64,000 bases of DNA from Candidatus Hydrogenedentota bacterium (lineage in GTDB: Bacteria > Hydrogenedentota > Hydrogenedentia > Hydrogenedentales > SLHB01). The first letter of the stretch is position 1; each line of letters opens with the position of its first letter. Position numbers and translations under genes: made by a program. The stretch covers positions 1,438 to 65,437 of the forward strand of contig JACRLJ010000015.1 in NCBI GenBank assembly GCA_016215105.1, in the 5' to 3' direction. Positions 22,839-51,242 of the stretch are shown here, one piece after another. A model generated the notes under the pieces. It worked only from the letters and a program-made list of their open reading frames with translations. It was not told where the DNA came from and made no database searches.

Positions 22839-23873
22839 TCATTTCCCTTTCGTGTCCGCGGCGGTTTTTTCGACGGCGCCCCAGAACCGGATCGTCCGGT
22901 CTCCGGACGACGACATCAGCCGGGTACCGTTGGCGTAGAAGACAAGACCATAGACGTTGGCCGTGCCGCCGTGTTTGAGCTCTTTGAGCAAAGGCAATGC
23001 GGGCTGGGCGAGGTCAGTTCCGAGGACGCGGATGCGGCCATCGTAGGCCGACACGGCCATGGCGTCTCCGGTTGGCGCGAAGGCTATGGTGTCAATGTTG
23101 TTGTTAAACGCGGCATAGGTGGACGTCTTGGAAGGCGTTTGCGCGTCGTACAGCGTGACGTGATCGCCGCCGCAGGCGATCTTGGCGCCGTCGGGCAATA
23201 TGGAGATCGCGTTGGCGTACTTCGGGCCCGGCGCCGTCCACAGGCTCCTCTTGGTCTTCCAGTCCACAAGGCTAACTTGGTCGGACAGGGTGGCCACGGC
23301 CAGTTTGTCATTGGCGCGGTTCATGTCCCATGCCGTAATTCGGTCCGGGGCCTCCCACCGGTCAATTTGGGTCAATGCGGCGGGGGCGCCGGCGCGATAG
23401 AGGCGGAGTATCGAACCCGCCTTGTCCGGTGAAAATTCCAGGCACATGAGGAGAGTGCGGTCGGGTGACCAGCGCATTCGTTGCGCCGGTCCCGGAACCA
23501 GTGATTGCACGAGCGTCCCCGAGATGTCGTACAACGCCAGTCCGGCCTTGGAACTGCACAAGACCCGGGGCGACTCCGGGTTCAGCGGCCAGAACACAGC
23601 GTACAGCGCGTCGTACGGTTCGACGCCGGGAATAGAGTACGCGTCAACGGATTTCTTCGTCGCGATGCCGTAAATGCGGATCAGCGCTTCCTCTTCGCTT
23701 ACGACGAGCGCGAGACGGCCGTCCGGGCTGATATCGCATTGAGTGAGATGTCCGTGACCTACATTGATGGAGCCAGTCTGCCCCCACGCGGCCCAGTCCG
23801 AAGGGGCCGCGTATGCGGCGGACGCGGAGATCAGGAGAATCATAGTAACAGTGGAAGAAACAACGCGACTCAT
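22839..23873 (-). CDS. Secreted WD40/beta-propeller repeat protein.
   Basis: Signal peptide MILLISASAAYAAPS. Repeated WD-like blades (e.g. IRFWG). Two bp downstream spacing to the GH gene. Confidence 0.7.
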   Translation of the reverse strand: MSRVVSSTVTMILLISASAAYAAPSDWAAWGQTGSINVGHGHLTQCDISPDGRLALVVSEEEALIRIYGIATKKSVDAYSIPGVEPYDALYAVFWPLNPESPRVLCSSKAGLALYDISGTLVQSLVPGPAQRMRWSPDRTLLMCLEFSPDKAGSILRLYRAGAPAALTQIDRWEAPDRITAWDMNRANDKLAVATLSDQVSLVDWKTKRSLWTAPGPKYANAISILPDGAKIACGGDHVTLYDAQTPSKTSTYAAFNNNIDTIAFAPTGDAMAVSAYDGRIRVLGTDLAQPALPLLKELKHGGTANVYGLVFYANGTRLMSSSGDRTIRFWGAVEKTAADTKGK

Positions 23874-30601: not shown

Positions 30602-31003
30602 ATGCAGATGCACATCTCGACGCACGACGGCGTTCCGATCTACCAGCAGATTGTGAGTCAAGTGAAGTATCTGGTGGCGTCCGGCCGGCTCACTCCCGGC
30701 GATGAACTTCCACCGATTCGCGCCTTGGCGGAGCAACTCCTGATCAATCCCAACACCGTCGCCCGCGCGTACCGTGAATTGGAAACCACGGGCCTCTTGA
30801 CCAAACGCCGCGGGGCGGGCACCTATGTCGCCGACACCGGTTCGCCGTTGGCCCGCGCCGAAAAGATGCGCCTTCTCGCGCAGCGGGCCGACGCGCTGCT
30901 CGTGGAAGCGCGCCAAATGAAAGTCGCCATTGATGATGTGGTTCGTCTCCTCCATGAACGCCAAGACGCCCTGGACCCGGGGATAAAGGAGAAACGCTCA
31001 TGA
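30602..31003 (+). CDS. GntR-family (YtrA-like) transcriptional regulator.
   Basis: HTH signature PPIRALAEQLLINPNTVARAYRELETTGL. Short 133-aa YtrA-type protein. Stop overlaps the ABC gene start (ATGA). Confidence 0.9.
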   Translation: MQMHISTHDGVPIYQQIVSQVKYLVASGRLTPGDELPPIRALAEQLLINPNTVARAYRELETTGLLTKRRGAGTYVADTGSPLARAEKMRLLAQRADALLVEARQMKVAIDDVVRLLHERQDALDPGIKEKRS

Positions 31004-31923
31004 CTGTGCCGCTCGATTCGGAATACGTCCTCGAAGTTGCGGGATTGACGCGCCGCTATGGCGCCAAGGCCGCATTGGACGACATCTGGCTCAAGGTTCC
31101 ACGCGGGGCCGTTTTTGGTCTGGTGGGCGAGAATGGGGCCGGCAAGACCACGCTGATCAAACACCTCATGGGACTTCTTAAGCCACAATTCGGATCGGTG
31201 CGCGTTTTCGGGCGCGATCCGGTTATCGATCCCGAGGGCGCGTTGTCTCGTATCGGTTACCTGTCCGAAGACCGGAGCATGCCGTTGTGGATGAGTGTGA
31301 CCGAGTTGATGGGCTATACGCGGGCCTTCTACCCGAAGTGGGATCAGACGTTTGCGGACGAGCTGCGCGAGACCTTTGCGCTGGACCCGAAAGCGAAGGT
31401 ACGCCACCTGAGCCGGGGCGAACGCGCCAAGCTCGGACTCCTGCTGGCGCTGGCGCATCGTCCGGAATTGCTCATCCTCGACGAGCCCTCGTCCGGGCTG
31501 GATTTGGCCGTGCGGCGGCACATCCTTACGGCGATTATCCAAACCGTGGCGGAGGAGGGCCGAACGGTCTTGTTCTCGTCACATCTGCTGGACGAGGTGG
31601 ACCGCGTCGCCGACTACGTCACCATGATCAATCAAGGCCAGATCGTATTGTCGTCAACCATGGATGAAGCGAAAGAGGCGCATCATCGCATCACGCTGCG
31701 ATTCGCCGAATCGCAGCGCCGAATGCCGTCCCTACCCGGCGCGCTGTTCTGCGAGGGATCGGGTCAAGAGTGGTCTGTCGTGTGCAACGGCCGTCTCGAA
31801 GAGCTGAAGAAGGCGGCGGAGTCCGCGGGGGCGGAGATACTGGCCGAGCAGATTCCGTCGCTCGAGGACATCTTCCTGGCGCACGCGAGCAACGCCCCGA
31901 GGGCAGCGAAAGAGGAGGACTAG
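31000..31923 (+). CDS. ABC transporter ATP-binding protein (ABC-2/YtrB-like).
   Basis: Walker A GENGAGKTT, signature LSRGERAKL and Walker B LLILDEPSSGLD. Confidence 0.9.
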   Translation: MTVPLDSEYVLEVAGLTRRYGAKAALDDIWLKVPRGAVFGLVGENGAGKTTLIKHLMGLLKPQFGSVRVFGRDPVIDPEGALSRIGYLSEDRSMPLWMSVTELMGYTRAFYPKWDQTFADELRETFALDPKAKVRHLSRGERAKLGLLLALAHRPELLILDEPSSGLDLAVRRHILTAIIQTVAEEGRTVLFSSHLLDEVDRVADYVTMINQGQIVLSSTMDEAKEAHHRITLRFAESQRRMPSLPGALFCEGSGQEWSVVCNGRLEELKKAAESAGAEILAEQIPSLEDIFLAHASNAPRAAKEED

Positions 31924-31926
31924 GCC

Positions 31927-33426
31927 ATGCAAGCCTCGATGAACGCGTTGCTGTGGGAACAGTGGCGGCGTACCCGCTGGGCATTGCTGGCGGTATTTGC
32001 CGCGTCAACCGTGGTAACGCTGTATTGCTTCATTTCGCCGAATCTTCCCAAGGACTATCAGACGCCGCCAGAACTGAGCCGAGATTTCCGATCGTTCGCG
32101 ATGATTCTGTATATGTTGGTGCTGTTTCTCCCGCTTGACGGTTCGGATATTAAGCTGGGGCTGCCCCGGTACATGATGACCCTTCCGTGCCGCACTTCGA
32201 TTCTTGCCAAAGCGCAACTCAGATATGGTCTGCTGAGCGCGCTGCTACTCGTAGTGGCTAACGAAGCTGTAGCGGCATGCTTCGTGGGCAATCAGAACTT
32301 TGAACTGGCGCTTCTGGCGGTTTCTTTGCTGGCGATTCTCTACGCGTTGTTCTGGACGTTTGGAATCGTGGCTCCACGGCCAACCCTGTTCGCGGCGGCC
32401 GCCACCGCGGTGACAGTCGTGTATTTTCACAACTTGTGGGAGAAAGCGAGTCTGTTCTTCCTCCCGGCAGAAGCCGTGGCGGCAATCATTGGCGTGTTCC
32501 TGGCCGTATGGGGTATATACCGCGACCGCAATGGCGAACTAGCGCCGGGGGTTTTCGAAAGAAACGAAGAATCGCCTAGTGCCTTTTTGTGGCGCCTCGC
32601 GCACGAGTTCGGATTCACTGCTCCGCCAGGATTGAAACCGCTGTTCCTGTACGAGTGGAAACGAACGTACCGGTACATCCCGATTATTAGTGTGCCTGCG
32701 GTGGTGGTCTGCTGTCTGGCTTTGCCGGGCTTGGATGGGCTGAGCTATCACGCCCGATTCAGAAACACCCAACTCTTCGAACATCTAACGTACACGTCGC
32801 TCGCAATTCCGCTGTTGGTTTGCGGCATAATAGGCCTTTTGCGCGACACTTGGGAGTATCGAGATTTTCGCGCCGGTCCTGGGTTATCGGAATACTGCCG
32901 ACCAGTGAGCGACCGGAGGCTCGTCGCAGCGCGATGGCTGGCCGGAGCCGCCGGAATTAGTCTGACCGAACTTCCGCTGTTACTGATTCTTCTCGCGTCT
33001 GGCGTCTTCTTGGGGGAGATTCGAATCCCAGTGGCTGCGACGAGTCTTATCTTCGTGCCAATTGCCTATATCACGTTAAGCTGGATACTGCTGTGGATCA
33101 GTCCACTGGTATTACTCGCCGCCCTGGTTATTCTCGGTGACATTCCGCACACGCTGACGTTGATACTTTTGTGCGGGATCGCGGGACTGGGATTGTTCGG
33201 GATCGTCCCGGTGGCCATCAGGCGTGGCGCCATATCGTCACGCTGGGTCTTGTTCAGCTTACTGTGCTGGACGGTAGTCTATGCGGTGTTGTACGGATCC
33301 CTCGTTAGACCACTCGATTCGCTTCCGGACGAGGTGTTGATCGCGATCGGAATGGTGGCCGTCATCGCGTGTCTGACATTCGTATGGACGCCACTGACCG
33401 TGCATGGGATGCGCCATCGGAGTTAG
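31927..33426 (+). CDS. Polytopic membrane protein, putative ABC-2 permease partner.
   Basis: About 12 predicted hydrophobic helices. Immediately downstream of the ATPase in the GntR-ABC operon. No motif-level homology call. Confidence 0.65.
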   Translation: MQASMNALLWEQWRRTRWALLAVFAASTVVTLYCFISPNLPKDYQTPPELSRDFRSFAMILYMLVLFLPLDGSDIKLGLPRYMMTLPCRTSILAKAQLRYGLLSALLLVVANEAVAACFVGNQNFELALLAVSLLAILYALFWTFGIVAPRPTLFAAAATAVTVVYFHNLWEKASLFFLPAEAVAAIIGVFLAVWGIYRDRNGELAPGVFERNEESPSAFLWRLAHEFGFTAPPGLKPLFLYEWKRTYRYIPIISVPAVVVCCLALPGLDGLSYHARFRNTQLFEHLTYTSLAIPLLVCGIIGLLRDTWEYRDFRAGPGLSEYCRPVSDRRLVAARWLAGAAGISLTELPLLLILLASGVFLGEIRIPVAATSLIFVPIAYITLSWILLWISPLVLLAALVILGDIPHTLTLILLCGIAGLGLFGIVPVAIRRGAISSRWVLFSLLCWTVVYAVLYGSLVRPLDSLPDEVLIAIGMVAVIACLTFVWTPLTVHGMRHRS

Positions 33427-33650: not shown

Positions 33651-36600
33651 CTACGGCGTAATTGAGCACTGCGGCAGGTCTTTCTTGAGGATTTTCAGGG
33701 CGCCTGCGGAGACCTTGGTCTGCGATAGGTTCAGCTTGCGCAATTGCGTGAATCCGGACAGGACCGTCGTAGCCTCGTCTGTCACGGGAGTTCCCGACAG
33801 GTTCAAATCGATCAGGTTGGGCAGCTCCTTCAGGGATTCCAGTCCCTTGCCGGTCACCTTTACGTTCAGCAACGTGAGGCGCTCGAGCTGGGTCAGCGCG
33901 GCCAACTCGGCCAAGCCCTCGTCCGTCACTTTGCTCGAGGCGATCTGCAGTTCGCGCAGGCCGGTGAGCTTCGTCAGGTTCCGCAGCTCCGCGTCGGTCG
34001 CAACTCTTCCCATCAGGATGATCGTGTTGAAGCTGTTCTTGTCCAGTGAACTGAGCGCGGTCAAATCCTGCGCGGCCTCGCTGTCGGTTTGGAGCTTGAG
34101 TTCGGCGCCTGGAGGCACTCCGACCTTACCCTGAGCGGGCCCGAGTTTGGCCCACTGCTGCGGGTCTACCGAACCCAAATTGCGGCTGAACAAGGTTCCG
34201 ACGGCTCCGCCGTCACCGAAATTCAGCAATCGCGGCGGCACGGCCAGTCCCGTGTCGCTGGTTCGCGACGAAATAACGGTCTTGACGGAGTCAGTCAACG
34301 TGCCGAACGAGAGGATCCCTTTGGATTCGAGGAACCACAACATGCCAACAAGAACTACCACTGCCGCCACCGCGAACAGCATCAACCGGGAGCGCTCGGG
34401 CGAATCCTGCGAGCCCTTCAAGCGGGTCCCAATTTTGGCCATCGCCGCGTCACGATCTTTCAGCGACTTCCGCAGCTTCTCGACTTCCGCGTGCGCCTTG
34501 GCCAGATCGCCGGACTTATCCCCTTGCGCTTTCCGCAGCGCATCGAGCTCCGCAGCCAGCTTTTGCTCGGATTCGGACGCGTCGCCCGTCTTCGCGCGCA
34601 ACGAGGCCAATTCCTCTTGGAGCGCCGAGACTTCCTCTTCACTTTGCGAGCTGTGCATGCTCGCCGCGACCATTGCTTCGTCGCGATCCGCCAGGGCCTT
34701 CTTGAGCGCCTCGACCTCGGCCTGCGCTTCGGACAGCGCGCCAGCCTTGTTGGATTGTTCGGCGCGCAACGCCGCAAGTTCCTCCGCCAGCTTCTGCTCG
34801 GACTCAGAGGCCTGACCTGTCTTCGCGCGAAGGCCTTCGAGTTCCTGGCGCAGCGCGTTCATGGCGTTTTCGCTGTCCGCGTTCCGCTGCGCCGCGGCGG
34901 ACATGGCTTCGTCGCGTTCCGTGAGCGATTTCTTCAGCGCCTCGACCTCCGCGCGGGCTTCGTCGAGGGCGCCGGATTTGTTGGTCTGCTCTTTACGCAG
35001 CGCTTCGAGTTCGGTTTCGAGCTGCCGCTCGGATTGAGACGCCTGGCCAGCCTTGGCCTGGATGGCCTCCAACTCTTTCTTGAGCGCCTCGACGGCCTTT
35101 TCGCTTTCGGAACTGCGTTGCGCGGCGGCGGACATGGCTTCGTCCCGCTCGCCGAGAGAGCGTTTGAGCGCCTCGACTTCCGCGCGGGCTTCGTCGAGCG
35201 CGCCGGACTTGTCGCTCTGTTCTTTGCGCAGCGCTTCGAGCTCGGAGACCAACTGCTGTTCCGATGTGGACGCCTGACTGGCTTGCCCGCGCAACGATTC
35301 GAGTTCTTGTTGCAGCGCGCTGACGGCCTTTTCACTTTCGGAACTGCGCTGGGTAGCGGCGGCCATGGCCTCGTCGCGTTCGCCCAAAGAATGTTTGAGC
35401 GCTTCGACTTCCGCCCGCGCCTCGGCCAGCGCGTTAGTCTTGTTGGTTTGTTCCGCGCGCAACGCCTCCAATTCACGCGCCAGTTCCTGTTCGGAAGTGG
35501 CCGCGCGCGCCGCGTTCGAGCGCAGAGCATCCAATTCTTGATTCAGCTTGGCCACCGCCGCCGCGCTCTCGGTGCTATTCTTGGTGGCCGTCGCCATGGC
35601 TTCGTCCCGCTCGCTTAGCGTACGCTTCAATGTGTCGAGTTCGGACTGCGCGCCGGTCAACTCGCCGGTCTTCGCCGCTTCGTTGGCTCGAATGGCGTCC
35701 AATTCGCGGGCCAATTGCTGTTCGGAAACCGAGGCCTGTTCCGCTTGCGCACGGATGGCGTCCAGTTCGCGTTTGAGCGCCGTAACGGCCTCGCCACTCT
35801 GCGAGCTGGCCGCGGCAACGGCCTTCTCGCGCTCGGCGAGGGTCTTCCGCAACGCGTCCAACTCGACCCGCGCGCCGGTTAGCGCCTCGGACTTATTGCT
35901 CTCCTTGGACCGCAACTCCTGCAGTTCCGCGGCCAGCGCTTTTTCGGATTTCGCGGCTTCGGCCGCTTTCACGCGCAGACCACCCAATTCGCGCTCCAGC
36001 GCGGCGACCGCTTTTTCGCGTTCGGCGTTGCGCTTGGCGGCTTCGGCGATGGCCACCTCGCGGTCGGACAAGGTGCGCTTCAACGCGTCCAACTCGGAGC
36101 GGGCGCCGGCCAGGGCCTCGGTCTTGCTGCCTTCCTTTTCCCGAAGCTCGCTTAACTGCGCGGCCAGGGCCTTCTCGGACGACGACGCGCGGTCGGCCTT
36201 GGTTCGCAGGGCCTCCAGCTCGGCTTGCAGCGCGGTAACCGCTTTCTCACGCTCGGCGTTTCGTTGCGCGGCCTCCGCGATGGCTTTCTCGCGCTCGGAA
36301 AGGGTTTGCTTCAACGATTCGAGTTCGGTTCGGGCGCCAGCCAGCGCTTCGGTCTTACTGTTCTCCTTGGCGCGCAACTCATTGAGCTGGGTGGTTAGGG
36401 CCTGTTCAGAGGAGGACGCGAGTTCGGCCTTTGCGCCGAGGGCGGCGACTTCCTGCTGCAAGGCGGTGACAGCCTTTTCGCGCTCGGCGCTGTGTTTGGC
36501 GGCTTCCGCGATGGCGGCCTCGCGCGACGACAGTGTCTTCTTGAGGAGTTCGAGCTCTGTTCGAGCGCCCGCCAACGCCTCGGTCTTGTTGCCTTCCTTT

Positions 36601-37772
36601 TCGCGGAGCTGCTGAAGCTCGGCCGTGAGGGCTTTTTCAGAGGTCGCAGCGCGATCCGCCTTGGCGCGGATGGATTGAAGCTCGTTTTGAAGAGAGGCGA
36701 CCTCTTTTTCGCGTTCGGCGTTGCGCCGGGCCGCCTCGGCGATGGCCCCTTCACGGTCAGCCAGCGTGTGCTTGAGCGATTCCAACTCGGTTCGGGCGCC
36801 GGCCAAGGCTTCGGTCTTCGTGCTTTCCTTGGCGCGTATTTCCTTCAACTCCGCCTCGAGAGCTTGCTCAGACGACGCGGCGCGCTCGGCCTGTCCACGG
36901 ATGGATTCGAGTTCCTTTTGCAGCGCGGCAACGGCTTTCTCACGTTCCGCGTTTTGGCGCGCGGCTTCGGCAATGGCCATTTCGCGATCCACTAAGGTCT
37001 GCTTCAACGACTCGAGTTCGGAGCGCGCCCCCGACAACGCTTGGACTTGTTGGCTTTCCTTGGCGCGCAGGTCATTCAACTCGGCCGCCAGCGCCTGCTC
37101 GGATGATGACGCCTGTTCGGCGTTCTGGCGGACCTGTTCGAGTTCCTCGCGGAGAACCGCAAACGCTTTTTCCTTTTCAGCGGTCTGCTTGGCGGCCTCT
37201 TCGATAGCCTTCTCGCGCTCGGATAGTTCCTTTCGCAGCAGCTCCAATTCGGACTGCGCGCCTGATAGTGCTTGAAGCTGCTGGTCCTCTTTGGCCCGCA
37301 GTTCTTCGAGTTCACCGGAGAGGTCCTGCTCAGCGCCGGTCTTTTGCTGGGCTTTCGCGCGGAGCTCCTCGAGTTCCTTCTGGAGTGTTTGTACGGTGCG
37401 CCGCAACCCCGACCGGTCGATCTCGTCGGATTGCTTGAGTTTGAGCGAGGCCTTCAAGGCTTTCGCCTCGAGTTCCTGGGCGCCCAGCCAGGACTGGATT
37501 TCCTTGCCCTGCTCCGGGCTCATCCAGCCGCTCAGCGCGGTGGAATCCTTCCGAACCTGGCCGATCCGGTTCACGAGGGCGTCGCAGGCGGCTCCGGCGT
37601 CGTCCAGCAGGTCCAATGCCGCCAAACTCTGCGCCCGCATGTAGACAATACGGACGCTGTTCGGCAGCGCCTGATCCAATTCCTCCAACACAGCGAGCAC
37701 GTCCAGGTACTTTTTCCCCTGGAACAATCCCGCGATTTGCTCGTACTTTCGCTCGGTCTCTTCTGGGCTCAT
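33651..37772 (-). CDS. Giant (1373 aa) single-pass membrane protein. N-terminal TPR-like segment, about 13 tandem 77-aa coiled-coil repeats, a TM helix, and C-terminal leucine-rich repeats.
   Basis: Repeating unit ALAGARTELESLKQTLSEREKAIAEAAQRNAEREKAVTALQAELEALRTKADRASSSEKALAAQLSELREKEGSKTE. TM helix LMLFAVAAVVVLVGMLWFL. C-terminal LRRs (LTKLTGLRELQIASSKVTD..LTQLERLTLLNVKVT..LPNLIDLNLSGTPVTD..LRKLNLSQTKV). Shadow ORFs on both strands were rejected. Confidence 0.85.
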   Translation of the reverse strand: MSPEETERKYEQIAGLFQGKKYLDVLAVLEELDQALPNSVRIVYMRAQSLAALDLLDDAGAACDALVNRIGQVRKDSTALSGWMSPEQGKEIQSWLGAQELEAKALKASLKLKQSDEIDRSGLRRTVQTLQKELEELRAKAQQKTGAEQDLSGELEELRAKEDQQLQALSGAQSELELLRKELSEREKAIEEAAKQTAEKEKAFAVLREELEQVRQNAEQASSSEQALAAELNDLRAKESQQVQALSGARSELESLKQTLVDREMAIAEAARQNAEREKAVAALQKELESIRGQAERAASSEQALEAELKEIRAKESTKTEALAGARTELESLKHTLADREGAIAEAARRNAEREKEVASLQNELQSIRAKADRAATSEKALTAELQQLREKEGNKTEALAGARTELELLKKTLSSREAAIAEAAKHSAEREKAVTALQQEVAALGAKAELASSSEQALTTQLNELRAKENSKTEALAGARTELESLKQTLSEREKAIAEAAQRNAEREKAVTALQAELEALRTKADRASSSEKALAAQLSELREKEGSKTEALAGARSELDALKRTLSDREVAIAEAAKRNAEREKAVAALERELGGLRVKAAEAAKSEKALAAELQELRSKESNKSEALTGARVELDALRKTLAEREKAVAAASSQSGEAVTALKRELDAIRAQAEQASVSEQQLARELDAIRANEAAKTGELTGAQSELDTLKRTLSERDEAMATATKNSTESAAAVAKLNQELDALRSNAARAATSEQELARELEALRAEQTNKTNALAEARAEVEALKHSLGERDEAMAAATQRSSESEKAVSALQQELESLRGQASQASTSEQQLVSELEALRKEQSDKSGALDEARAEVEALKRSLGERDEAMSAAAQRSSESEKAVEALKKELEAIQAKAGQASQSERQLETELEALRKEQTNKSGALDEARAEVEALKKSLTERDEAMSAAAQRNADSENAMNALRQELEGLRAKTGQASESEQKLAEELAALRAEQSNKAGALSEAQAEVEALKKALADRDEAMVAASMHSSQSEEEVSALQEELASLRAKTGDASESEQKLAAELDALRKAQGDKSGDLAKAHAEVEKLRKSLKDRDAAMAKIGTRLKGSQDSPERSRLMLFAVAAVVVLVGMLWFLESKGILSFGTLTDSVKTVISSRTSDTGLAVPPRLLNFGDGGAVGTLFSRNLGSVDPQQWAKLGPAQGKVGVPPGAELKLQTDSEAAQDLTALSSLDKNSFNTIILMGRVATDAELRNLTKLTGLRELQIASSKVTDEGLAELAALTQLERLTLLNVKVTGKGLESLKELPNLIDLNLSGTPVTDEATTVLSGFTQLRKLNLSQTKVSAGALKILKKDLPQCSITP
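34530..37330 (-). repeat. Intragenic tandem repeat, period about 231 bp (77 codons), about 12-13 units, encoding coiled-coil heptads.
   Basis: Periodicity is visible in the protein translation and in recurring DNA strings such as CTTGAGCGCCTCGACCTCCGCGCGGGCTTCGTCGAG. Confidence 0.85.
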
Positions 37773-37934
37773 ACCGGTTTCCTACCCATCTCTTCTACCC
37801 TGCGCGCAATCACGTCTCGTCCGCTGCCTGATAGTACCACAGGCGCCAAGGTGTTTTCTTGACACCCCGGCCATTCGGACTCTACACTGAATTATGATTT
37901 TTGGCGTAACCCGACACGGCGGAGACTCAGCGGC

Positions 37935-39515
37935 ATGAGTTCTGACGCCACGATGATGCTGCTAATCTGCTCGTGCGGACAGAAGATGAAGGTGGCGACC
38001 ACCTCACTTGGCAAAACCGTCCGTTGCGTGAAATGCGGCGAGCGGCTGTCGATCACCGCGGACAACACCAAGCAGATTCCCACGGACGTTGTCGCCGCGC
38101 GCTCTGAAACGCCGCCCCTCCCCCCCCAGGCCACCCACACCGCAGGATCAGCTGCCGACGTAGCGGAAAAGGGCCCTTTCAAAGGACCGGCCGCGCCCGC
38201 CGGCTCCGAACCGCAGCAGACTGCGCGAATCGGCGCCTTGCTAATTCAGAATGGACTGATTACGAATACGCAGTTGCAGGAGGCGCTGACGGTTCAAAAG
38301 GAGCGCGGGGGAAAGACTTTCGAATTACTGATCGAACTGGGCTACTTGGACAAGAGAGCCCTGCACGAGTTCTTTTCAAAGCAGCCGGGCATTGCGAGCA
38401 TCGATCTCGCCAACTACCAAATCAATACGGATTTGGCGACGCTTATCCCGAAAGAGTTTGCGCTGGACCGTGTCATTCTGCCTTTGGACAAGCTGGGGAA
38501 GCTGTTGACGGTCGGAATGGCGTGTCCAATCGACACCGTCACGATCAAGGCCGTCGAGGAGATGACCGGCCTTCGGGTCAAGGCGATGCTCTGCAGGCTG
38601 GACGATATCCACGCCGCGGTGCAGAAATACTACCGCGATCCCAATCAGCCCGAGCAGCACGCCACACTTGAGTCGTTCGGTTTGGCCAAGCTGGCGCTTA
38701 GACCGGAAGATGCCGCGCCGCTGCTCTCCCAGTTGCTCGCGCTGCCGGCCTCGTCCCGCACGATAGAACGCCTCAAACACACGGGCGCAGATGCGCCGGT
38801 TCAGGAGGTCGCCCGTATCGCCGCGCAAGACCCGCCGTTTGCCGCTTCGATATTGACGCTGGCGAATTCGAGCGCCTACGGTTTTCCCAAACGCGTGGAT
38901 ACCATTGGATTCGCATTATCCTTGCTGGGCGCCGCCGGAATCCGCGAGTTGACGCTCGCGGCGGAGTCCGCGGCCCAAACGCACAATGCGGTGGCCGTGG
39001 ACACGCTGGCGCTTGAGGCGAGTTCCGTGTTTTGCGCGAAAGCGGCAAAGGCGATTGCCAAAGTGGCCTGTCCCGGCAAGGAGGCCATTGCGTACGTCGC
39101 GGGGCTGCTCCACGAAATCGGACGTTACGCGCTGGCGAACATCATGCCGGAGCGCTACGTCAAGTTGGACCAGAGTTTGCCGGGGCCGGCGCTGCTCAAA
39201 GCAGAGAAACAGGCGTTCACCCTAACCCATCCCGAAGCGGGATACTCCGCGGCCAGCCGTTGGGGCCTGCCCGTGACGATTGTCGAACCCATTCGGCGCC
39301 ATCACGAGCCGGAAAAGGCGACCGATGCGAAGGATATTGTGGCCGTGGTGGCCTTGGCGTCGGTCATGTCAGACGCCGCAAGCGCAACCGATGGTCAGGC
39401 CAGTCAGGACCCGTTCGCGGATTGCGGTCAATTACTAAAATCCTTGCGCTTGGATAAGCCCACGGCGCAGCGCATCCTATCGGAAGTTGTGGCGAGCGCG
39501 TCCGAGAAGTCGTAG
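37935..39515 (+). CDS. Signalling protein: N-terminal Zn-ribbon + T2SS protein-E N-terminal (GSPII_E_N) domain + HDOD domain.
   Basis: CSCGQKMKV...CVKCGERL zinc ribbon. LLIQNGLITNTQLQEALTVQKERGGKTFELLIELGYLDKRALHEFF...DLATLIPKEFALDRVILPL matches the T2SSE_N fold. C-terminal HDOD-like region (ILTLANSSAYGFPKRVDTIGFALSLLGAAGIRELTL...LLHEIGRYALA). Confidence 0.75.
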   Translation: MSSDATMMLLICSCGQKMKVATTSLGKTVRCVKCGERLSITADNTKQIPTDVVAARSETPPLPPQATHTAGSAADVAEKGPFKGPAAPAGSEPQQTARIGALLIQNGLITNTQLQEALTVQKERGGKTFELLIELGYLDKRALHEFFSKQPGIASIDLANYQINTDLATLIPKEFALDRVILPLDKLGKLLTVGMACPIDTVTIKAVEEMTGLRVKAMLCRLDDIHAAVQKYYRDPNQPEQHATLESFGLAKLALRPEDAAPLLSQLLALPASSRTIERLKHTGADAPVQEVARIAAQDPPFAASILTLANSSAYGFPKRVDTIGFALSLLGAAGIRELTLAAESAAQTHNAVAVDTLALEASSVFCAKAAKAIAKVACPGKEAIAYVAGLLHEIGRYALANIMPERYVKLDQSLPGPALLKAEKQAFTLTHPEAGYSAASRWGLPVTIVEPIRRHHEPEKATDAKDIVAVVALASVMSDAASATDGQASQDPFADCGQLLKSLRLDKPTAQRILSEVVASASEKS

Positions 39516-39541: not shown

Positions 39542-39582
39542 GGAATCCGGCCGAGGAGTCGGCGTTCTGGCCGCGCCTCTAA
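39542..39582. repeat. Repeat family A, collapsed short copy (A5) overlapping the GH20 stop codon.
   Basis: GGAATCCGGCCGAGGAGTCGGCGTTCTGGCCGCGCCTCTAA contains both family A termini. Confidence 0.65.
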
Positions 39583-41363
39583 TTCGCCTTCAGCAGGGCG
39601 AGCAAATTTTCCATCGCGCCCGCGCTCTCTTTAAGCCCGCCTGACCGGTTCCGGGCAAGCCATAGCTGGCGGTATTGCGGGATGATGGGGGCCAATTCCG
39701 CCGCGAGGCGGCTGCGCACATCGCGTGGGAGTGCGGAGGTAGCGACTCCACCGGCTTTTGCGCGCGCGATGCCCAGGTGGCACGCGAACCGCGCGAGGTT
39801 TGCGTCCACGGCAAATTCGTCGCGAATAAGTTGCGCGTCGGAGGTCTTCATTCGCGCGTTTGGCAACCGCGCCATGACTTCGTCGACGTAGGCCAGCGTC
39901 TCCTCCATGTCCTTCGCCGACAGCGTTTTCAGAAAGGACTTGGAGAACGGCTTTTCCGTGCAGTGCAGAAGCAGACCGTAGAAGGTCGTGTTGTTACCGG
40001 GAGTGATGCCGGTTTTTTGGTAGGCGTTGCCGAGGTCGTACGCCAACTTGCCCATGACACCCGCTTCGTCTTCAAATGCGTAGGCGTCGAGGATGCGAGG
40101 TATATCCGCGCCAGCGTTCGTCTGCACGCACCAACTGACCGCCGCACCGTAGGCGAAGCCAAGATACGAAATGGGCAGGCACTGCCAATGGCCGCCGTCG
40201 CCCCAGTCGGTGATCAGGTACCCGATTGCGCCATTGGCCAAACCGTTCTCGCCAGCATTGCGGAGGTTGGCGACCGCGTTGTCGGTTCGGCCTACGAGTG
40301 AATTCCAGCTCGAAGTGCCAGGCACCACGTAGTAGGAGATTCCTGAACTCGCGAAGATTTTCCCATGTTCAAGGAAAGGATGTTTGGCCTCGTAGCCCCA
40401 CTCCATGGCGACCACGTCCTTGGGCAGTTCGGGGATCAGCTCCTTGTGGTTCATGATGATGACGCAGTCCGGGTCCACGGGACACAGGTCGCCTCCCCCG
40501 CCGGGCATTTCGCCGAGGTGTTTGTACTGTGGATGTTGCAGCCAGCGGCCCATGTGTCCAAACGAATTTTGATTGGGAACCAGCTCGATATAGCGCTCGC
40601 GGCAATACTTATCCAACTCCTGGATCTGATGGGCCGTCATGGGAGAGGCGTCCTGCCATACCGTGGGGTGGTTGCGATACGAGAAGGTGTGCTCGGTGTA
40701 CAGTTGCAGCTGGTTGAGCTTCCAACTGGCGAACTTGTCCACAAGCGCGTAGAGCGTTTCCATTTCGGGGACTTTGTCGCGCGCGACGTCGAGCATCACG
40801 CCGCGATTGGGAAAGTCGGGCCAGTCCACGACGTGTGCGAGCGGCAGCACCCCGCTGGCGCGCGCCTGTTGAGCAATCTGACGTATCGTCTGGGCGGCGT
40901 AGAACACTCCGGCTTCATCATGGGCGGTGATGCGAACACCGCTGGGGCCGATCGCGAGGTCATATCCCTGCGCGTGAGGCGCTGCCGCGGCGTCCACCTT
41001 GACCGAGGCCTGAGGAGCCGCCTTGTCCGCGCGGGAAGGCAGACTCTGCAGCGCGCCGAGCACAAAGCGCCGGATTTTCTCCTGCTGTTCACTCGATAGA
41101 CCGTTCCCGTCAACAGCGACATCGCCGGGGGCCAATTCGAAGGCCGGCTGCGGCGTATTGATATCGGCTTGGCGCGGCGCTGGAAGAAGGGGCCAGTCCA
41201 GGCGCTGTCCCGGCGCTACCGCCGGCGCGGCCTTATGCGACTTCTGCGGCTTGGCGTGCGTCGCGGATCGATCGGGGGCATGTTGCGGTCCGGAAGCACA
41301 CCCGGCCATTAGGAAAAGCGCCGCAAGAGACGGTAGAACGACGCCCAGTTGGTTTATACGCAT
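39579..41363 (-). CDS. Glycoside hydrolase family 20 beta-N-acetylhexosaminidase-like lipoprotein.
   Basis: Lipobox LFLMAGC. GH20 domain-2 and catalytic-start motifs (GYDLAIGPSGVRITAHDEAGVFYAAQTIRQI; VVDWPDFPNRGVMLDVARD). Confidence 0.8.
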   Translation of the reverse strand: MRINQLGVVLPSLAALFLMAGCASGPQHAPDRSATHAKPQKSHKAAPAVAPGQRLDWPLLPAPRQADINTPQPAFELAPGDVAVDGNGLSSEQQEKIRRFVLGALQSLPSRADKAAPQASVKVDAAAAPHAQGYDLAIGPSGVRITAHDEAGVFYAAQTIRQIAQQARASGVLPLAHVVDWPDFPNRGVMLDVARDKVPEMETLYALVDKFASWKLNQLQLYTEHTFSYRNHPTVWQDASPMTAHQIQELDKYCRERYIELVPNQNSFGHMGRWLQHPQYKHLGEMPGGGGDLCPVDPDCVIIMNHKELIPELPKDVVAMEWGYEAKHPFLEHGKIFASSGISYYVVPGTSSWNSLVGRTDNAVANLRNAGENGLANGAIGYLITDWGDGGHWQCLPISYLGFAYGAAVSWCVQTNAGADIPRILDAYAFEDEAGVMGKLAYDLGNAYQKTGITPGNNTTFYGLLLHCTEKPFSKSFLKTLSAKDMEETLAYVDEVMARLPNARMKTSDAQLIRDEFAVDANLARFACHLGIARAKAGGVATSALPRDVRSRLAAELAPIIPQYRQLWLARNRSGGLKESAGAMENLLALLKAN

Positions 41364-41529
41364 TGGTTATCTCCCCGGTAATGCGACTCAGAACAATTCG
41401 CTTCGCGCCCGCGCGCCCGGATGGGATAGCGCCCGCGCCAAGCCGTAGTCTAACGGATAGGGACAGCGAAAGTCCCCTGCGCGGTCCTGGCGTTGACTGA
41501 CGGCGCTCGATCGATACGATTGGCCGCGA

Positions 41530-42330
41530 TTACGCCACAAATGCGTTCGTGAGGGGCGCGGCTTCGGTGGTTCGCACGCGCACCCCGTGTACCATGATTC
41601 CTGGGCGGCCCATGCTTTGGCCGCAGATCTGCTTGTTCTCCGGGTCGCGGTATCCCAGCCGCACCAGCCGGCGCATCCGGTTGGTGCGGTTAACGTGGCT
41701 GCCGTGGACGCAGAATATATTGAAGCACACCACGTCGCCGCGCTTCGCCGGCACGGCTACCGTGTTCTCCAGAGGGTATTCATCCGTTGGCAGGTGGGGC
41801 GTACACGGGCCAGCGTCGGTCATTGTAATGTGCGGGAGGTAGCCTTTCTTGTGTGATCCCGCCAGAAAGCGAATCTCGCCGTTTTCGTGGCAGGTGTCGT
41901 CCAGATGGACCAGCACGTCGATGTACCGGCCGTCGGTGTGTTCGTAGAATGCGTTGTCCTGGTGCAAGGGGAAGGGGTGGCCAGTCTCGCGTGGCTTGAT
42001 GTGCAGTGTGGTGTGATGAAGTTCGATGTTCGGGCTGCCAATGAGGTCGGACATGCACTCCGCGAGAGCGGACTTGCTCACGCCATGGAGCCAGGCTTCC
42101 GAATAGAAATGGAGATCGTGCAGCGAGGTGAGCTTGGATTTTTTCTCGGTCTCGGGGTCCATGTAGGCCAAGCGCCAGGGACCGGTCCAGCCCATGTCCG
42201 TCGACGCCCAATGGTCGAGCAAGTAATCGAGTTCCGATTCCAGCGCGTCCATTTCGGACGGCGTGAAAACCTGAGGGATACGGAGGAATCCGTTTTCGTT
42301 GTAGAAGCTAATCTGGTCTTGCGAAAGCAT
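41530..42330 (-). CDS. Phytanoyl-CoA dioxygenase (PhyH) family Fe(II)/2OG oxygenase.
   Basis: ISFYNENGFLRI and HQDNAFY...H facial triad pattern. 266 aa. Confidence 0.88.
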   Translation of the reverse strand: MLSQDQISFYNENGFLRIPQVFTPSEMDALESELDYLLDHWASTDMGWTGPWRLAYMDPETEKKSKLTSLHDLHFYSEAWLHGVSKSALAECMSDLIGSPNIELHHTTLHIKPRETGHPFPLHQDNAFYEHTDGRYIDVLVHLDDTCHENGEIRFLAGSHKKGYLPHITMTDAGPCTPHLPTDEYPLENTVAVPAKRGDVVCFNIFCVHGSHVNRTNRMRRLVRLGYRDPENKQICGQSMGRPGIMVHGVRVRTTEAAPLTNAFVA

Positions 42331-42565
42331 GTCCTACTCCTCGTCGTTCGCCGGGGCAAATCCGGCGTCGAACACCCACGTGTCTTCATCTGCGCCACTC
42401 GATTAGACACCACCGTTTGCCGCGCTGTCAAGATAGGGCGCCAGCGCTATTTTGGGGTTCAAACTGGCTTGACTCGCTCGATTATGGTCCTGTATCATCG
42501 CCGATTGTGTAAGCAGTGTCAGGCGCTCACGAGGGGAAAACGGGCCGATCGGAGGCATTCGAAGC

Positions 42566-43672
42566 ATGGCAAAAGTAGAGCTCAAAAGCGTTAAGAAGAT
42601 ATACCCCGGTGGCGTCGAAGCGGTGAAGGGCGCGAACTTGGTCGTAAACGACAAGGAATTCGTGGTATTCGTCGGCCCGTCAGGTTGCGGTAAGTCAACG
42701 ACCCTTCGAATGATAGCCGGGTTGGAAGAGATCAGCGACGGGGAAGTCTTCATCGGCGACACCCGTGTCAATGATGTTCCGCCCAAGAATCGCGATATCG
42801 CGATGGTGTTTCAGAATTACGCGCTGTACCCGCACATGACGGTGTACAAGAATATGGCGTTTGGCCTGATGCTGCGGAAGTATCCGAAGAAGGAAATCGA
42901 GAAACGGGTGCGCGAAGCCGCCCAGATTCTCGGAATCGAGCACCTGTTGGATCGCAAGCCCAAGGCTCTGTCCGGCGGCGAGCGCCAGCGCGTGGCGGTT
43001 GGACGCGCCATCGTCCGTCAGCCGAAGGTGTTCCTGTTTGACGAGCCCTTGTCCAACCTTGACGCGAAGCTGCGCGTGCAGATGCGCGCGGAAATCAGCA
43101 AGCTGCATACGCGTCTGCAATCCACCATGATTTATGTGACCCACGATCAGGTCGAGGCCATGACGATGGGAGATCGGATCGTGGTCATGCTGGGCGGTTC
43201 GATCCAGCAGATTGCGACCCCGCTCGAGTTGTACAACAAGCCCGCCAACAAGTTCGTCGCGGGATTCATCGGCAGCCCGCCCATGAACCTCATCGAGGGG
43301 ACCATCAACGGGAGCAACGGGCAGTTGACGTTCCGGGACGCTTCGGGCGTGTTGAACGTGAACGTAGCCCAGCAACATCAGAATGCTCTTCAGTCCTATA
43401 CCGGCAAGAAGGTGTTTATCGGTATACGGCCCGAAGACCTGCAGGACAACATCAGCCAGACCATCACGCCGGGCAAGAGCGTGCAAGCCCCGGTCGAAGT
43501 CGTCGAGCCCATGGGGTCGGAAATCTATCTCTACCTCAACGTCGGCGGTCATACGATTACGGCGCGAATCCACGCCGACCGCGAGCCCGAGGTGAACAAG
43601 CCCCACGTGCTCGATGTGAACATGGATAAGGCGCATTACTTCGCTGCGGTGTCGGAGGTAGCAATACGGTAG
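42566..43672 (+). CDS. Sugar ABC transporter ATP-binding protein (MalK/UgpC-like), orphan.
   Basis: Walker A GPSGCGKST, LSGGERQRVAVGRA and a C-terminal TOBE-like domain. No adjacent permease or SBP. Confidence 0.92.
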   Translation: MAKVELKSVKKIYPGGVEAVKGANLVVNDKEFVVFVGPSGCGKSTTLRMIAGLEEISDGEVFIGDTRVNDVPPKNRDIAMVFQNYALYPHMTVYKNMAFGLMLRKYPKKEIEKRVREAAQILGIEHLLDRKPKALSGGERQRVAVGRAIVRQPKVFLFDEPLSNLDAKLRVQMRAEISKLHTRLQSTMIYVTHDQVEAMTMGDRIVVMLGGSIQQIATPLELYNKPANKFVAGFIGSPPMNLIEGTINGSNGQLTFRDASGVLNVNVAQQHQNALQSYTGKKVFIGIRPEDLQDNISQTITPGKSVQAPVEVVEPMGSEIYLYLNVGGHTITARIHADREPEVNKPHVLDVNMDKAHYFAAVSEVAIR

Positions 43673-43774
43673 GGCAATGCCCAAAGCGGTGACGACGGCG
43701 CGCTTCGGCGCGCCGTTTTTGTATGTGAATGCGTGATAGGACGACGAGACAAAGCTGCGGCAGGGGAGTTCAGT

Positions 43775-44953
43775 ATGAGCATCGACATCAAGGCGGCCGC
43801 CGCGCGGTTCGAGGCCCGGTTTGGGCATGCCCCCACGGTGGGGGCCCGCGCGCCGGGACGTGTCAACATCATCGGGGAACACACCGACTACAACGGCGGA
43901 TTCGTTCTGCCCATGGCCATCGAGCGAGAGACGGTAGTCCTGGGGAGCCCGAGAAAGGACCGCGTACTCAATGCGTATGCGGCGAACCTGGAGCGGAGCG
44001 CACAGTTAAATCTGGACCACCTCGACCGCAATCCCAGCGAACATTGGATGGATTACGTCACGGGAGTCGCGCGTGAGCTCGGGCTTCTGGGGAAACCGGT
44101 GGTTGGCGCGGACATCCTGATCCTGGGTGACGTCCCCGTGGGCGCGGGACTGAGTAGTTCGGCGAGTCTTGAGATGGCGGCGCTCAAGTTCTTCGAAGTA
44201 CTGGGCGGATTTACACTCGAGGGACCGGCCGGCGCCAAACTGGGACAGCGGGTGGAAAACGATTTCCTCGACCTTAAGACCGGCATCATGGACCAGTTTA
44301 TCGTGCGAATGGGTCAACATGGACACGCCCTGTTTCTCGATTGCCGGTCCTACGAGTACGAGTCAATTCCGATCAAGTTCGACGACGCGGTGTTCGTGAT
44401 CGCGAACACCGGCGTATCGCGAGGACTTGCCAGCTCCAAGTACAACGAACGTGTGCATGAGTGTGGCGAAGCCGTTGAAGCAATGCGGCGAGTCCTCGGT
44501 GGTAGCGGCAAGTCCCTGCGCGATTTTCCTGGCGAAGCGGATTTGGATGCGTGCCGTGGACAACTCCGCGACGTGGTCTATCGCCGGGCGCGACACGTCA
44601 TCACGGAAAACGCGCGCACGCAGGACGCCGCCGAGGCGATGCGCCGGGGCGACGCCGCCGCGTTGGGGCGCTTGATGAACGCGTCGGGTGACAGCTTGCG
44701 GATAGACTACGAAGTAACCTGCAACGAACTGGACATCATGACACGAATTGCGCGGTCCCATTCCGCGTGTTTTGGCTCCCGAATGACCGGCGCGGGTTTT
44801 GGCGGTTGCACGGTGAGTCTGGTTGCCGCTGGCCACGCGGATAAGTTCTGCGAATTCCTCGCGCAGGCGTATCGCTCGGAGACGGGTATCCGGGCTGAAC
44901 TGGTCGTGTCCTCCGCGGCGCAGGGCGCGACTCAGGTTGGGTGGCGTGGCTAG
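43775..44953 (+). CDS. galK: Galactokinase.
   Basis: Trimmed to MSIDIK after GGGGAG. GRVNIIGEHTDYNGG signature. GHMP kinase PxGAGLSSSAS and GAGFGGC motifs. Confidence 0.92.
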   Translation: MSIDIKAAAARFEARFGHAPTVGARAPGRVNIIGEHTDYNGGFVLPMAIERETVVLGSPRKDRVLNAYAANLERSAQLNLDHLDRNPSEHWMDYVTGVARELGLLGKPVVGADILILGDVPVGAGLSSSASLEMAALKFFEVLGGFTLEGPAGAKLGQRVENDFLDLKTGIMDQFIVRMGQHGHALFLDCRSYEYESIPIKFDDAVFVIANTGVSRGLASSKYNERVHECGEAVEAMRRVLGGSGKSLRDFPGEADLDACRGQLRDVVYRRARHVITENARTQDAAEAMRRGDAAALGRLMNASGDSLRIDYEVTCNELDIMTRIARSHSACFGSRMTGAGFGGCTVSLVAAGHADKFCEFLAQAYRSETGIRAELVVSSAAQGATQVGWRG

Positions 44954-45048
44954 GATTAGGCGGAAAACAGTGTTGCACTAAACGCATGGGCCAGTCAGAC
45001 GGCTCGGACTAGTCGAACGTGTCAGACGTGTCAGACAACAATACAGAC

Positions 45049-50067: not shown

Positions 50068-51242
50068 GTCCTCTGCCTCCTTGTCCCTGTCTTGGCGCCT
50101 CGATATCTCCGAACCACAGCAGCAAAGGCTGCGGTGGCAAGAAGCCCTGCACCCGCCGCGCCTGTCAAGAGAACCTGAGAGGACCACCGCGCACGGCCGG
50201 GATCGTGTCCGGAGCCAACTTCGGAAGTCTTCTCGGAAGGTGCGATAGGTAACTTGAGAAGATGCGAGGTCCCATCGCCGTCCTGCCGACCTTCTTTTTC
50301 TGGTAGCATGGCCGGCTTGTTCATAATGCTGGCCATGTCCCCTTGAACCTGCGTAATGTCCCACGAACTGACCGGCTGGCGCTGCTCGTAGGGAGAGTTC
50401 TCGGCTGCCGGGTCACCTGGCGGCCTCAAATGTGATGTATCCACCCTGAAGAACCCGCCTGGTATGTTCAGTTCTCTGAATTTCTCGAGCAGTTCGACAA
50501 GCTTGTCACTTGACCTCCAGGACGGCTCAATCGTTTGATAGAGCCCGCTTGCCAGCAATATACCCAAGACAGGATGGAGCTTGTCCGGGTGCGCCAAGTC
50601 ATTCCGGACCTCCGCGATGGTCTCCTCCGTTGTTTTCACAATGTCCTTTCGAAGTGCGCTTTCCGCTTCGTCACTGAGCGGCGCCTTGAAGCTGGGTACG
50701 AGAGGATTCGCTGCAGCGGCTCGTTGGTTGCGGTCGAGTTCAGCGGCAAATGACAACAAAGATTCTCTCTCGGTCTCGTTTTGGACCTCTGCCGCCGTTC
50801 GCGTCACGCCATCGCGAATCAAGAGCAATATCGAGTCCAATTGACGATTTATCACGTCCTGCTGATCCGCCGGTATTGGCGGTCTGGCCAGGTAGTCCTC
50901 CACCGCAATACGGTACCTCTCCGCAAGGATTTCGATTTCAACTGGCGTCTGTCGGTAAATGTTGTTGACGCTCCAGACCGTAAAGTCGGGCGTGAAGCCC
51001 AGCAGCATTCGTTGTTCGTCAGAAGTAAGCGCCCTGCCCCCCGTCTGAGTGAGGACTCCTTCGTAGGCGCGGGCAACGCTATCGACCGTTTCCGGTGTCC
51101 AATTGACGTAGTAGTCACGCATCCACGCGCGAAGTTCCGACAACGTCTGTACCGGCGCCGTACTACCTAGAGCGGTCAGCGCGAAAAGAAGCGCGACGGC
51201 GAACAAACACAACGAACTAGCGTACAGTCTCTGACCAGACAT
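50064..51242 (-). CDS. Hypothetical secreted protein with a C-terminal hydrophobic anchor followed by a basic tail.
   Basis: Trimmed to MSGQRLYASSLCLFAVALLFALTALG. C-terminus VLLTGAAGAGLLATAAFAAVVRRYRGAKTGTRRQRT. 4-bp ATGA overlap with the downstream gene. Confidence 0.55.
   Translation of the reverse strand: MSGQRLYASSLCLFAVALLFALTALGSTAPVQTLSELRAWMRDYYVNWTPETVDSVARAYEGVLTQTGGRALTSDEQRMLLGFTPDFTVWSVNNIYRQTPVEIEILAERYRIAVEDYLARPPIPADQQDVINRQLDSILLLIRDGVTRTAAEVQNETERESLLSFAAELDRNQRAAAANPLVPSFKAPLSDEAESALRKDIVKTTEETIAEVRNDLAHPDKLHPVLGILLASGLYQTIEPSWRSSDKLVELLEKFRELNIPGGFFRVDTSHLRPPGDPAAENSPYEQRQPVSSWDITQVQGDMASIMNKPAMLPEKEGRQDGDGTSHLLKLPIAPSEKTSEVGSGHDPGRARWSSQVLLTGAAGAGLLATAAFAAVVRRYRGAKTGTRRQRT

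Follow-up and report, generated by a model that had tools for sequence, protein, structure and literature searches.

A family of rod-bearing membrane proteins in Hydrogenedentota with a periplasmic leucine-rich repeat domain and a divergently encoded MshEN/HDOD partner

Background

The landmark and scaffold proteins that serve cell poles and motility machines in bacteria are specific to lineages, with very few examples from outside the Proteobacteria. PodJ of Caulobacter crescentus joins N-terminal cytoplasmic coiled coils through one transmembrane (TM) helix to a periplasmic domain of solenoid repeats (PMC8980812; PMC4085708), and it recruits signalling and pilus-assembly clients. In the TipN-TipF system for flagellar placement in Caulobacter, a membrane coiled-coil landmark recruits a c-di-GMP receptor and positions the flagellum (PMC4085708). 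The polar hubs HubP of Vibrio and FimV of Pseudomonas are bitopic proteins with a periplasmic anchor, one TM helix and a long repetitive cytoplasmic region, and they organise flagella, pili and chemotaxis arrays (PMC4085708). We have analyzed a stretch of 64,000 nucleotides, referred to here as the window, from a Candidatus Hydrogenedentota bacterium (assembly GCA_016215105.1, contig JACRLJ010000015.1, positions 1,438 to 65,437), which carries a gene for a protein of similar general design. We call it the giant gene, and its product the giant protein. No member of the Hydrogenedentota has been cultured; the phylum is predicted to consist of motile rods (PMC11406978).

Here we describe the architecture, coiled-coil geometry and topology of the giant protein, its pairing with a divergently transcribed gene, and the variable unit number and rod-less relatives found among its homologues. 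It belongs to a conserved, uncharacterised protein family with a credible functional partner. Our leading, if tentative, interpretation is that the protein serves as an envelope-anchored scaffold or spacer, analogous rather than homologous to PodJ, TipN/TipF and HubP.

Results and discussion

A conserved protein family and its partner gene

The features of the giant gene and its partner are collected in Table 1. An earlier sequence-only reading of the window had proposed a 1373-residue open reading frame (ORF) whose product has a cytoplasmic N-terminus, a single TM helix and at least five C-terminal leucine-rich repeats (LRRs), divergent from a Zn-ribbon/T2SSE_N/HDOD gene across 162 bp. Each of these elements was recovered: an uninterrupted ATG-to-stop frame on the minus strand, one TM segment with positive charges on its N-terminal side, six LRRs of 24 residues (by AlphaFold2 (AF2), PDB profile and Foldseek), and all three domains in the neighbour beyond the gap. 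The third-position GC content (GC3) of the giant gene is 0.76, similar to that of adjoining genes. A word-index search returned 11 full-length homologues of 1117-1759 amino acids (aa) with the same layout, and GTDB genomes add more, up to 1936 aa. An exact look-up of the giant protein in a contig index gave no match, and a contig scan with the whole protein found no relative; the GTDB members were reached through alignment of the neighbour. The family is small and has been seen almost exclusively in Hydrogenedentota, from a metagenome-assembled genome (MAG) of which homologue P0002 also comes.

Table 1. Coordinates of features of the giant gene and its partner in the window
Feature	Coordinates	Strand	Remarks
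Giant gene	33651..37772	-	ATG-to-stop ORF, 1373 aa; bitopic membrane protein with head, rod, TM helix and periplasmic LRR domain
TPR-like head	37518..37772	-	aa 1-85; four helices, invariant Cys63, PNS motif
Continuous heptad coiled-coil rod	34437..37517	-	aa 86-1112; about 143 heptads, about 150 nm
Array of 13 tandem 231-bp/77-aa units	34479..37472	-	aa 101-1098; 13 matches to a hidden Markov model (HMM)
Single TM helix	34323..34397	-	about aa 1126-1150; RLKGSQDSPERSR just before
Periplasmic domain	33654..34238	-	five-strand beta cap (aa about 1181-1228) and six 24-residue LRRs, ending LPQCSITP
Divergent intergenic region	37773..37934	.	162 bp
Sigma-70-like TTGACA-18-TACACT	37859..37888		facing the HDOD gene; consensus match only
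Partner gene	37935..39515	+	526-aa Zn-ribbon/MshEN/HDOD protein; Pfam HDOD 130.8 bits, MshEN 46.7 bits
Zn ribbon	37968..38039	+	aa 12-35; CSCGQKMKV...GK..C.KC (CxC...CxxC), nearly invariant among paired neighbours
MshEN_N c-di-GMP motif	38226..38384	+	aa 98-150, 53 residues; RIGALLIQNGLITNTQLQEALTVQ-KERGG-KTFELLIELGYLDKRALHEFFSKQ
HDOD domain	38781..39311	+	aa 283-459

A divergent gene for a Zn-ribbon/MshEN(/HDOD) protein adjoins the giant gene in 12 independent loci (the window, L001, L003, L004, L013, L015-L019, L021 and L022). When loci were approached from the giant gene, the divergent neighbour was found in L001 (with one gene between), L003 and L004 (an MshEN-only version). When GTDB genomes were approached from the neighbour, 9 of 13 informative loci had the giant gene directly upstream and divergent (L013, L015-L019, L020, which is the same locus as L001, L021 and L022). 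Outside the pair the flanks of the 12 loci differ and are unrelated. Both deep branches of the partner tree contain partners from such pairs, about 30% identical to one another. The differing flanks and the spread of partners over both branches indicate that the adjacency is kept by selection and does not reflect recent common descent. A probable functional link between the giant gene and the HDOD neighbour, which had earlier been offered as a conjecture, is thus supported.

A search of the surroundings of the pairs for a third gene common to them gave none; it showed synteny at the level of clades (PPTase, FabH, ETF) and a single pair of homologues, w_601 and L021_651. The former is a 601-aa ORF of the window (55875..57680, plus strand), the latter a 651-aa gene (3167..5122) directly downstream of the giant gene in L021; they are 31% identical over ~600 aa (E = 1e-83), and neither has a Pfam match. 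They could be another component associated with the pair, or just a protein that is conserved in the phylum. Downstream of the giant gene of L001, and read in the same direction, come flgB/C and fliE, F, G, H, I and J (L001 13903..23720); in L004 (1160..6925) and L022 (4797..8067), pilM(NOPQ) comes after the MshEN gene. The giant gene of L005 is near FtsA/MreB-like, bactofilin and M23 peptidase genes.

The partner encoded in the window is 100% identical to P0067, an NCBI MAG protein annotated as 'HDOD domain-containing protein [Candidatus Hydrogenedentes bacterium]'. It matches NCBIfam NF053729, a curated model of the c-di-GMP motif, with 50.2 bits against a cut-off of 38, over positions 1-53 of 53. 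By the definition of the MshEN_N motif (PMC12943098, PMC5013675), motif 1 fits both the strict and the relaxed published patterns, and motif 2 is looser (K-T-F for R-L-G). The partner is accordingly best described as a putative c-di-GMP-receptor-like protein with an intact predicted c-di-GMP-binding motif. Its HDOD domain (PF08668) scores far above the gathering threshold of 22.9 bits. The HD and HDIG models remain under their cut-offs, which makes catalytic competence doubtful; HDOD proteins can be adaptors that bind no ligand, as is the case for SadB (PMC12075610). In the partners of L001, L003, L013, L015, L016, L018 and L019 the first motif has lost R and G (e.g. SEALRLLRQHGLL...), while the Zn ribbon and HDOD are kept. 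This degeneration in the long-rod clade suggests that c-di-GMP input is dispensable there.

The repeat array

Self-comparison of the giant protein gives a peak at a lag of 77 residues (identity 0.44) with harmonics at 154 and 231. The 77-residue periodicity and the count of 13 units had been correctly read from the sequence, but the units are not near-identical as was then supposed: pairs share 36-77% of residues in protein and 39-75% in DNA. Nor are the 231-bp copies highly similar at the DNA level. Tandem Repeats Finder scored just two short 231-bp arrays in the gene, with 74-78% matches, and a repeat finder applied to the array placed the copies at 60-75% identity to the reference copy. Units 2-7 and units 9-13 form two sub-families; between them lies the divergent unit 8, which is three residues short (74 aa) and contains SSQSGE.

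The longest exact direct repeat within the giant gene is 23 nt. Because the units have diverged and exact repeats are this short, assembly collapse and high present-day recombinational instability, both of which had been raised as possibilities, are unlikely, and the array is real and old. The repetitive character of the region is also the sole point in favour of regarding the ORF as an assembly artefact or a chance non-coding frame. Such an origin is, for practical purposes, already refuted by the differences between units at 25-60% of DNA positions as well as by the lack of long exact repeats, by a GC3 that matches neighbouring genes, and by more than 20 homologues from independent assemblies that share the architecture and the repeat frame.

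That frame (aa 101 + 77k) is common to the family members, whose number of units, as counted with the unit HMM, is 8, 11, 13, 14 or 15-18. Units of the giant protein score 0.60-0.77 against each other and 0.42-0.57 against any unit of another member; the exceptions are unit 1, at the end of the array, and unit 8, the hinge, with 0.43-0.45 within the protein and 0.40-0.43 between proteins. The greater likeness within the protein points to lineage-specific amplification or concerted evolution.

Geometry of the coiled-coil rod

The rod follows a strict heptad pattern. Fourier analysis of strongly hydrophobic residues gives a periodicity of exactly 3.50, coherent across almost 1000 residues, and 84-95% of the L/I/V/M/F residues are confined to two registers. 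The a/d frame is constant over aa 87-660 and again over aa 666-1105, with a single shift (stutter) at the 3-residue deletion in unit 8. Since 77 residues make 11 heptads, unit amplification never breaks the heptad frame. The sole proline of this stretch is P86, and AF2 predicts one uninterrupted helix over aa 86-269. The length given in Table 1 is an estimate from a rise of 0.148 nm per residue.

Across the 143 heptads we counted 42 attractive g-e'(i+5) charge pairs against 1 repulsive pair; alternative registers give 2-16 attractive and 0-17 repulsive pairs. A complementary g-e' charge pattern is the mark of a parallel in-register dimer. The pattern favours this arrangement for the rod, with the qualification that oligomer number and orientation are beyond proof from sequence and that the AF2 model is a monomer. 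A quite improbable alternative is that the rod folds back on itself, with units 1-7 and 9-13 pairing as an intramolecular antiparallel coil hinged at unit 8, like the arms of SMC and Rad50. Such a coil would be about 75 nm long and would return the head to the vicinity of the membrane. The two sub-families separated by the divergent unit 8 with its SSQSGE segment agree with this idea, as do the best (sub-threshold) family matches, which are to SMC and Rad50 coiled-coil arms; conserved charges in the core would moreover be easier to satisfy between differing partner positions. The halves are unequal, however (about 540 and 385 residues), the rod has neither proline nor loop, ATPase heads are lacking, the family match reaches 117 bits where 567 are required, and the 42:1 ratio of charge pairs is the signature expected of parallel in-register pairing.

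Sequence conservation was measured over 247 units from 21 proteins. It amounts to 2.1 bits at a/d, 1.1-1.3 bits at e/g and 0.3-0.7 bits at the exposed b/c/f positions. Conservation at the core and flanking positions indicates that the constraint on the rod is that of a coiled coil and not that of a surface with regularly spaced binding sites. With b/c/f the least conserved positions, we do not favour a platform in the manner of tropomyosin, on which such sites would recur. The core itself carries charged residues: R, R, E and K occupy repeat columns 9, 23, 48 and 65, respectively, in 53-83% of the 247 units.

The same pattern bears on the possibility that the rods associate side by side, as filaments or as a lattice, beneath the inner membrane, riveted by the LRR domain, with a mechanical or cell-shape role. 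A membrane-attached cytoskeleton of this kind, likened to crescentin, FilP, Scy or other coiled-coil-rich proteins, would be in keeping with a very long, regular rod with a single stutter, with a 77-residue pattern of charges and core residues that could support staggered packing, and with the genes that surround the L005 member. We nevertheless regard it as unlikely: the outward b/c/f positions needed for lateral packing are those least conserved, rod length varies widely, and the conserved partner is of a signalling type and not a shape determinant.

Matches of the rod to known coiled-coil families were rejected as compositional. Pfam ATG16 (81.8 bits against a gathering score of 33.7), Fez1 (36 against 34.4), SHE3 and TBCA_PH match coiled-coil segments only, and the matches to SMC, Rad50, EzrA and PspA in NCBIfam and to JetC and LmuB in PADLOC are likewise limited to the coil and fall far below the family cut-offs. 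Membership of an SMC/Rad50/MukB-like family can be set aside as well, as coil columns alone are matched (117 against 567 bits) and the two ends of the protein are occupied by a TPR-like head and by LRRs. A role in defence was rejected: the partner has no PADLOC match, and ATPase and nuclease domains are absent. The protein is also no methyl-accepting chemotaxis protein, given that Pfam shows no MCPsignal or HAMP match and the single TM helix is near the C-terminus.

Topology and the periplasmic domain

The hydropathy peak spans aa 1130-1148, and the helix in the AF2 model of the TM region occupies residues 11-36 of the fragment (aa 1125-1150). In 19 of 19 family members, lysine and arginine are more frequent before the TM helix (3-6 per 15 residues) than after it (1-4). 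The N-terminus of the giant protein is hydrophilic and, as read from the sequence, without a signal peptide. P0013, by comparison, a stand-alone homologue of the cap and LRRs from a Sumerlaeia MAG, begins with one. From the missing N-terminal signal peptide, the positive-inside charge bias and the signal peptide of P0013, the giant protein is predicted to be an inner-membrane protein of N-in, C-out topology, whose N-terminal 1110 residues are cytoplasmic and whose last 225 residues form the capped LRR domain on the periplasmic side. On the same three observations we reject a surface adhesin with an external coiled coil.

The AF2 model of the TM and LRR fragment has a predicted local distance difference test (pLDDT) score of 86.5, rising above 90 over the LRR domain, where strands are located at aa 1250, 1274, 1298, 1322, 1346 and 1370, a spacing of exactly 24 residues. 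About 15 residues with pLDDT below 50 link the TM helix to the LRR module; in P0333 this linker consists of more than 300 acidic residues. A profile built from the alignment matches the LRRs of Roco in the PDB with E = 2e-53, and also GALA, FBXL2 and internalins, and Foldseek gives probability 1.0 to the LRRs of NLRP1, Roco and internalin. Single-sequence Pfam LRR matches are all under the gathering score. On the strength of the modelled fold and the profile matches we assign the C-terminal domain to the leucine-rich repeat superfamily. The five-strand cap that precedes the LRRs (R.L.FP...G.L..R...W...A.G.V.VP) had no match in the PDB profile search.

The head and its rod-less relatives

With an alignment of 12 family sequences, AF2 models the head and the adjoining helix with pLDDT 92. 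The four head helices (aa 3-18, 22-35, 40-52 and 56-79) are antiparallel. No Pfam TPR model matches the giant protein itself with an E-value of 0.01 or lower. Many multi-TPR proteins align with positions 5-68 of the profile built from the heads of the family, and for this reason we regard the head as TPR-like; rod-less relatives that share the head score with TPR_19 and TPR_16.

These relatives emerged from a search of 1.84 billion representative proteins with the head profile. It returned about 20-25 rod-bearing representatives, many of them fragments, and about 15 proteins in which the same N-terminal head is followed by a TM helix within 35-90 residues. In P0259, P0289 and P0333 the head and TM helix lead into the same cap-plus-LRR module; in others (P0320, P0285 and more) the TM helix is followed by other extracytoplasmic or polytopic domains. 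Among the head-TM proteins as a whole, the parts beyond the helix comprise LRR, cytochrome-c/Cu-monooxygenase-like, NPCBM or polytopic membrane domains. The giant protein thus appears to belong to a broader, unnamed 'head-TM-X' family that includes P0259, P0289, P0333, P0320, P0285 and others. The rod-less members suggest that the core of the family is a head, a TM helix and a periplasmic domain, and that the rod is an insertion which distances the head from its anchor. Those of the head-TM-LRR type constitute a built-in evolutionary control for what the rod contributes.

Possible function

In the interpretation that we favour, the LRR domain would fix the giant protein to a partner in the envelope, and the rod would serve as a rigid spacer or scaffold, its length depending on how many repeats it contains (relatives have 8-18 units). 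Clients would be recruited by the head, which in rod-less relatives is placed right at the membrane. Foremost among the candidate clients is the co-encoded Zn-ribbon/MshEN/HDOD protein, through a contact that would involve the head. As the motif of this protein is intact in the present genome, its recruitment or release could depend on c-di-GMP. By analogy with PodJ, TipN-TipF and HubP, the pair might then constitute a landmark or scaffold module, and might organise type IV pili or flagella.

The sequence-only reading had spoken of a receptor or scaffold-like architecture with an extracytoplasmic LRR sensor. As a transmembrane receptor, it would bind a ligand through the periplasmic LRR domain and pass a signal along the coil, for example by a change of register or rotation, to the head and from there to the MshEN-HDOD protein. 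LRR domains commonly bind ligands, that of the giant protein is extracytoplasmic, the partner has signalling domains (the c-di-GMP motif and HDOD), and the heptad frame runs continuously from the head to near the TM helix. However, neither Pfam nor NCBIfam reveals a known transmitter or output domain in the giant protein. We know of no precedent for faithful signalling across about 143 heptads (150 nm), and this counts against a receptor. The disordered linker of ~15 residues behind the membrane (>300 acidic residues in P0333) would decouple mechanical signalling. The range of 8-18 units among orthologues, together with rod-less relatives that keep head and LRR, implies that the rod is not a tuned transmission element. 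Conservation limited to core and flanking positions, the variable rod length and the rod-less relatives are better accommodated by a structural spacer or scaffold than by a signal wire; they weaken the case for a sensor, which we consider improbable and less likely than a scaffold.

A molecular ruler or tether was also considered, and appears about as improbable as a receptor. Here a rigid parallel coil, riveted by the LRR domain, would hold the TPR head and the c-di-GMP-responsive adaptor at a set depth in the cytoplasm, in steps of 11.4 nm for each 77-residue unit and over a range of about 90-205 nm across the family. If correct, this would represent a golgin-like principle of spatial organisation so far undescribed in bacteria.

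Several observations weigh against the scaffold interpretation. The phylum lacks a cultured member (PMC11406978). The gene pair is not universal: four GTDB loci carry the MshEN-HDOD gene with no giant gene within 10 kb, the giant gene of L005 has a different upstream neighbour in place of the MshEN/HDOD gene, and the partner is absent at both rod-less loci examined. The strict c-di-GMP motif is intact just in the window and in L004 and near-intact in L022. By a regular-expression test it is degenerate in L001, L003, L013, L015, L016, L018 and L019, and it was not found in the partners of L017 and L021, where the region could not be located. Motility genes stand beside the pair in only three loci, and the flanks in the window are housekeeping and glycan-use genes. 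Finally, the conserved charged R, R, E and K of the coiled-coil core are without explanation, and the monomeric AF2 model is silent on oligomeric state and on any folding back of the rod.

Other genes in the window

Convergent with the giant gene is an apparent operon (30602..33426, plus strand) for a GntR regulator, an ABC ATPase and a 499-aa polytopic membrane protein with no Pfam match. Beyond the partner gene lies a glycan-use cluster (39579..48006) with genes for a GH20-like hexosaminidase, a PhyH dioxygenase, a MalK-type ABC ATPase, a galactokinase and a 985-aa GH141/beta-helix/NPCBM protein. Four minus-strand ORFs have gene-like GC3 and match no Pfam model with an E-value of 1e-4 or lower: 48193..50364 (723 aa), 61072..63150 (692 aa), 21428..22837 (469 aa) and 51376..52257 (293 aa). 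A 344-aa WD40 beta-propeller protein is encoded at 22839..23873 (minus strand), adjoining a gene of the endonuclease/exonuclease/phosphatase family. An Rfam scan of the 64-kb window gave no match.

Comparison with known systems

PodJ resembles the giant protein in overall topology and logic. Its cytoplasmic region consists of six separate coiled coils and a disordered region, as opposed to a continuous rod of 143 heptads, it has no TPR head, and its periplasmic part is made of TPR and a peptidoglycan-binding domain instead of LRRs. Pfam and NCBIfam show no peptidoglycan-binding or TPR match in the periplasmic part of the giant protein; no relationship in sequence to PodJ emerged, although no PodJ sequence was compared directly, and topology alone is shared.

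The TipN-TipF system offers a parallel at the level of the gene pair. TipF carries a degenerate nucleotide-signalling domain, and in the window a coiled-coil membrane protein is likewise coupled with an MshEN/HDOD protein. TipN, however, is of reversed polarity, with two TM helices at its N-terminus and its coiled coil at the C-terminus; it has no periplasmic domain and shows no homology to the giant protein. TipF, for its part, is an EAL protein of the membrane, and tipN and tipF are not known to be neighbouring genes. HubP and FimV are reversed in orientation, with a periplasmic LysM domain at the N-terminus, and their cytoplasmic repeats are acidic units of 46 aa and not heptad coils. With the opposite orientation and no LysM or FimV match in Pfam or NCBIfam, the giant protein does not belong to their family.

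The C-terminal domain is alike in fold and in profile (E from 2e-53 to 1e-37) to the bacterial LRRs of 24 residues found in Chlorobium Roco, in Ralstonia GALA/RipG and in proteins of FBXL2 type, and stand-alone secreted homologues of the LRR module occur in Sumerlaeia, Gemmataceae and others. In contrast to these, the LRR domain in the window is fused through a TM helix to a giant cytoplasmic rod.

In eukaryotes, golgin-type tethers such as giantin and golgin-84 have an N-terminal capture head, a coiled-coil rod of at least 100 nm and a TM helix near the C-terminus, as does the giant protein. They show no homology to it and are tail-anchored with almost no lumenal domain, and we know of no bacterial cargo for a golgin-like tether. 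Compared with all these systems, the family described here combines a very regular rod of adjustable length, an LRR anchor on the envelope side and a conserved genetic link to a c-di-GMP-receptor-like protein. If the proposed mechanism is correct, it would represent an independent bacterial solution to spatial organisation and a natural, modular spacer on the nanometre scale, with an increment of 11.4 nm per unit.

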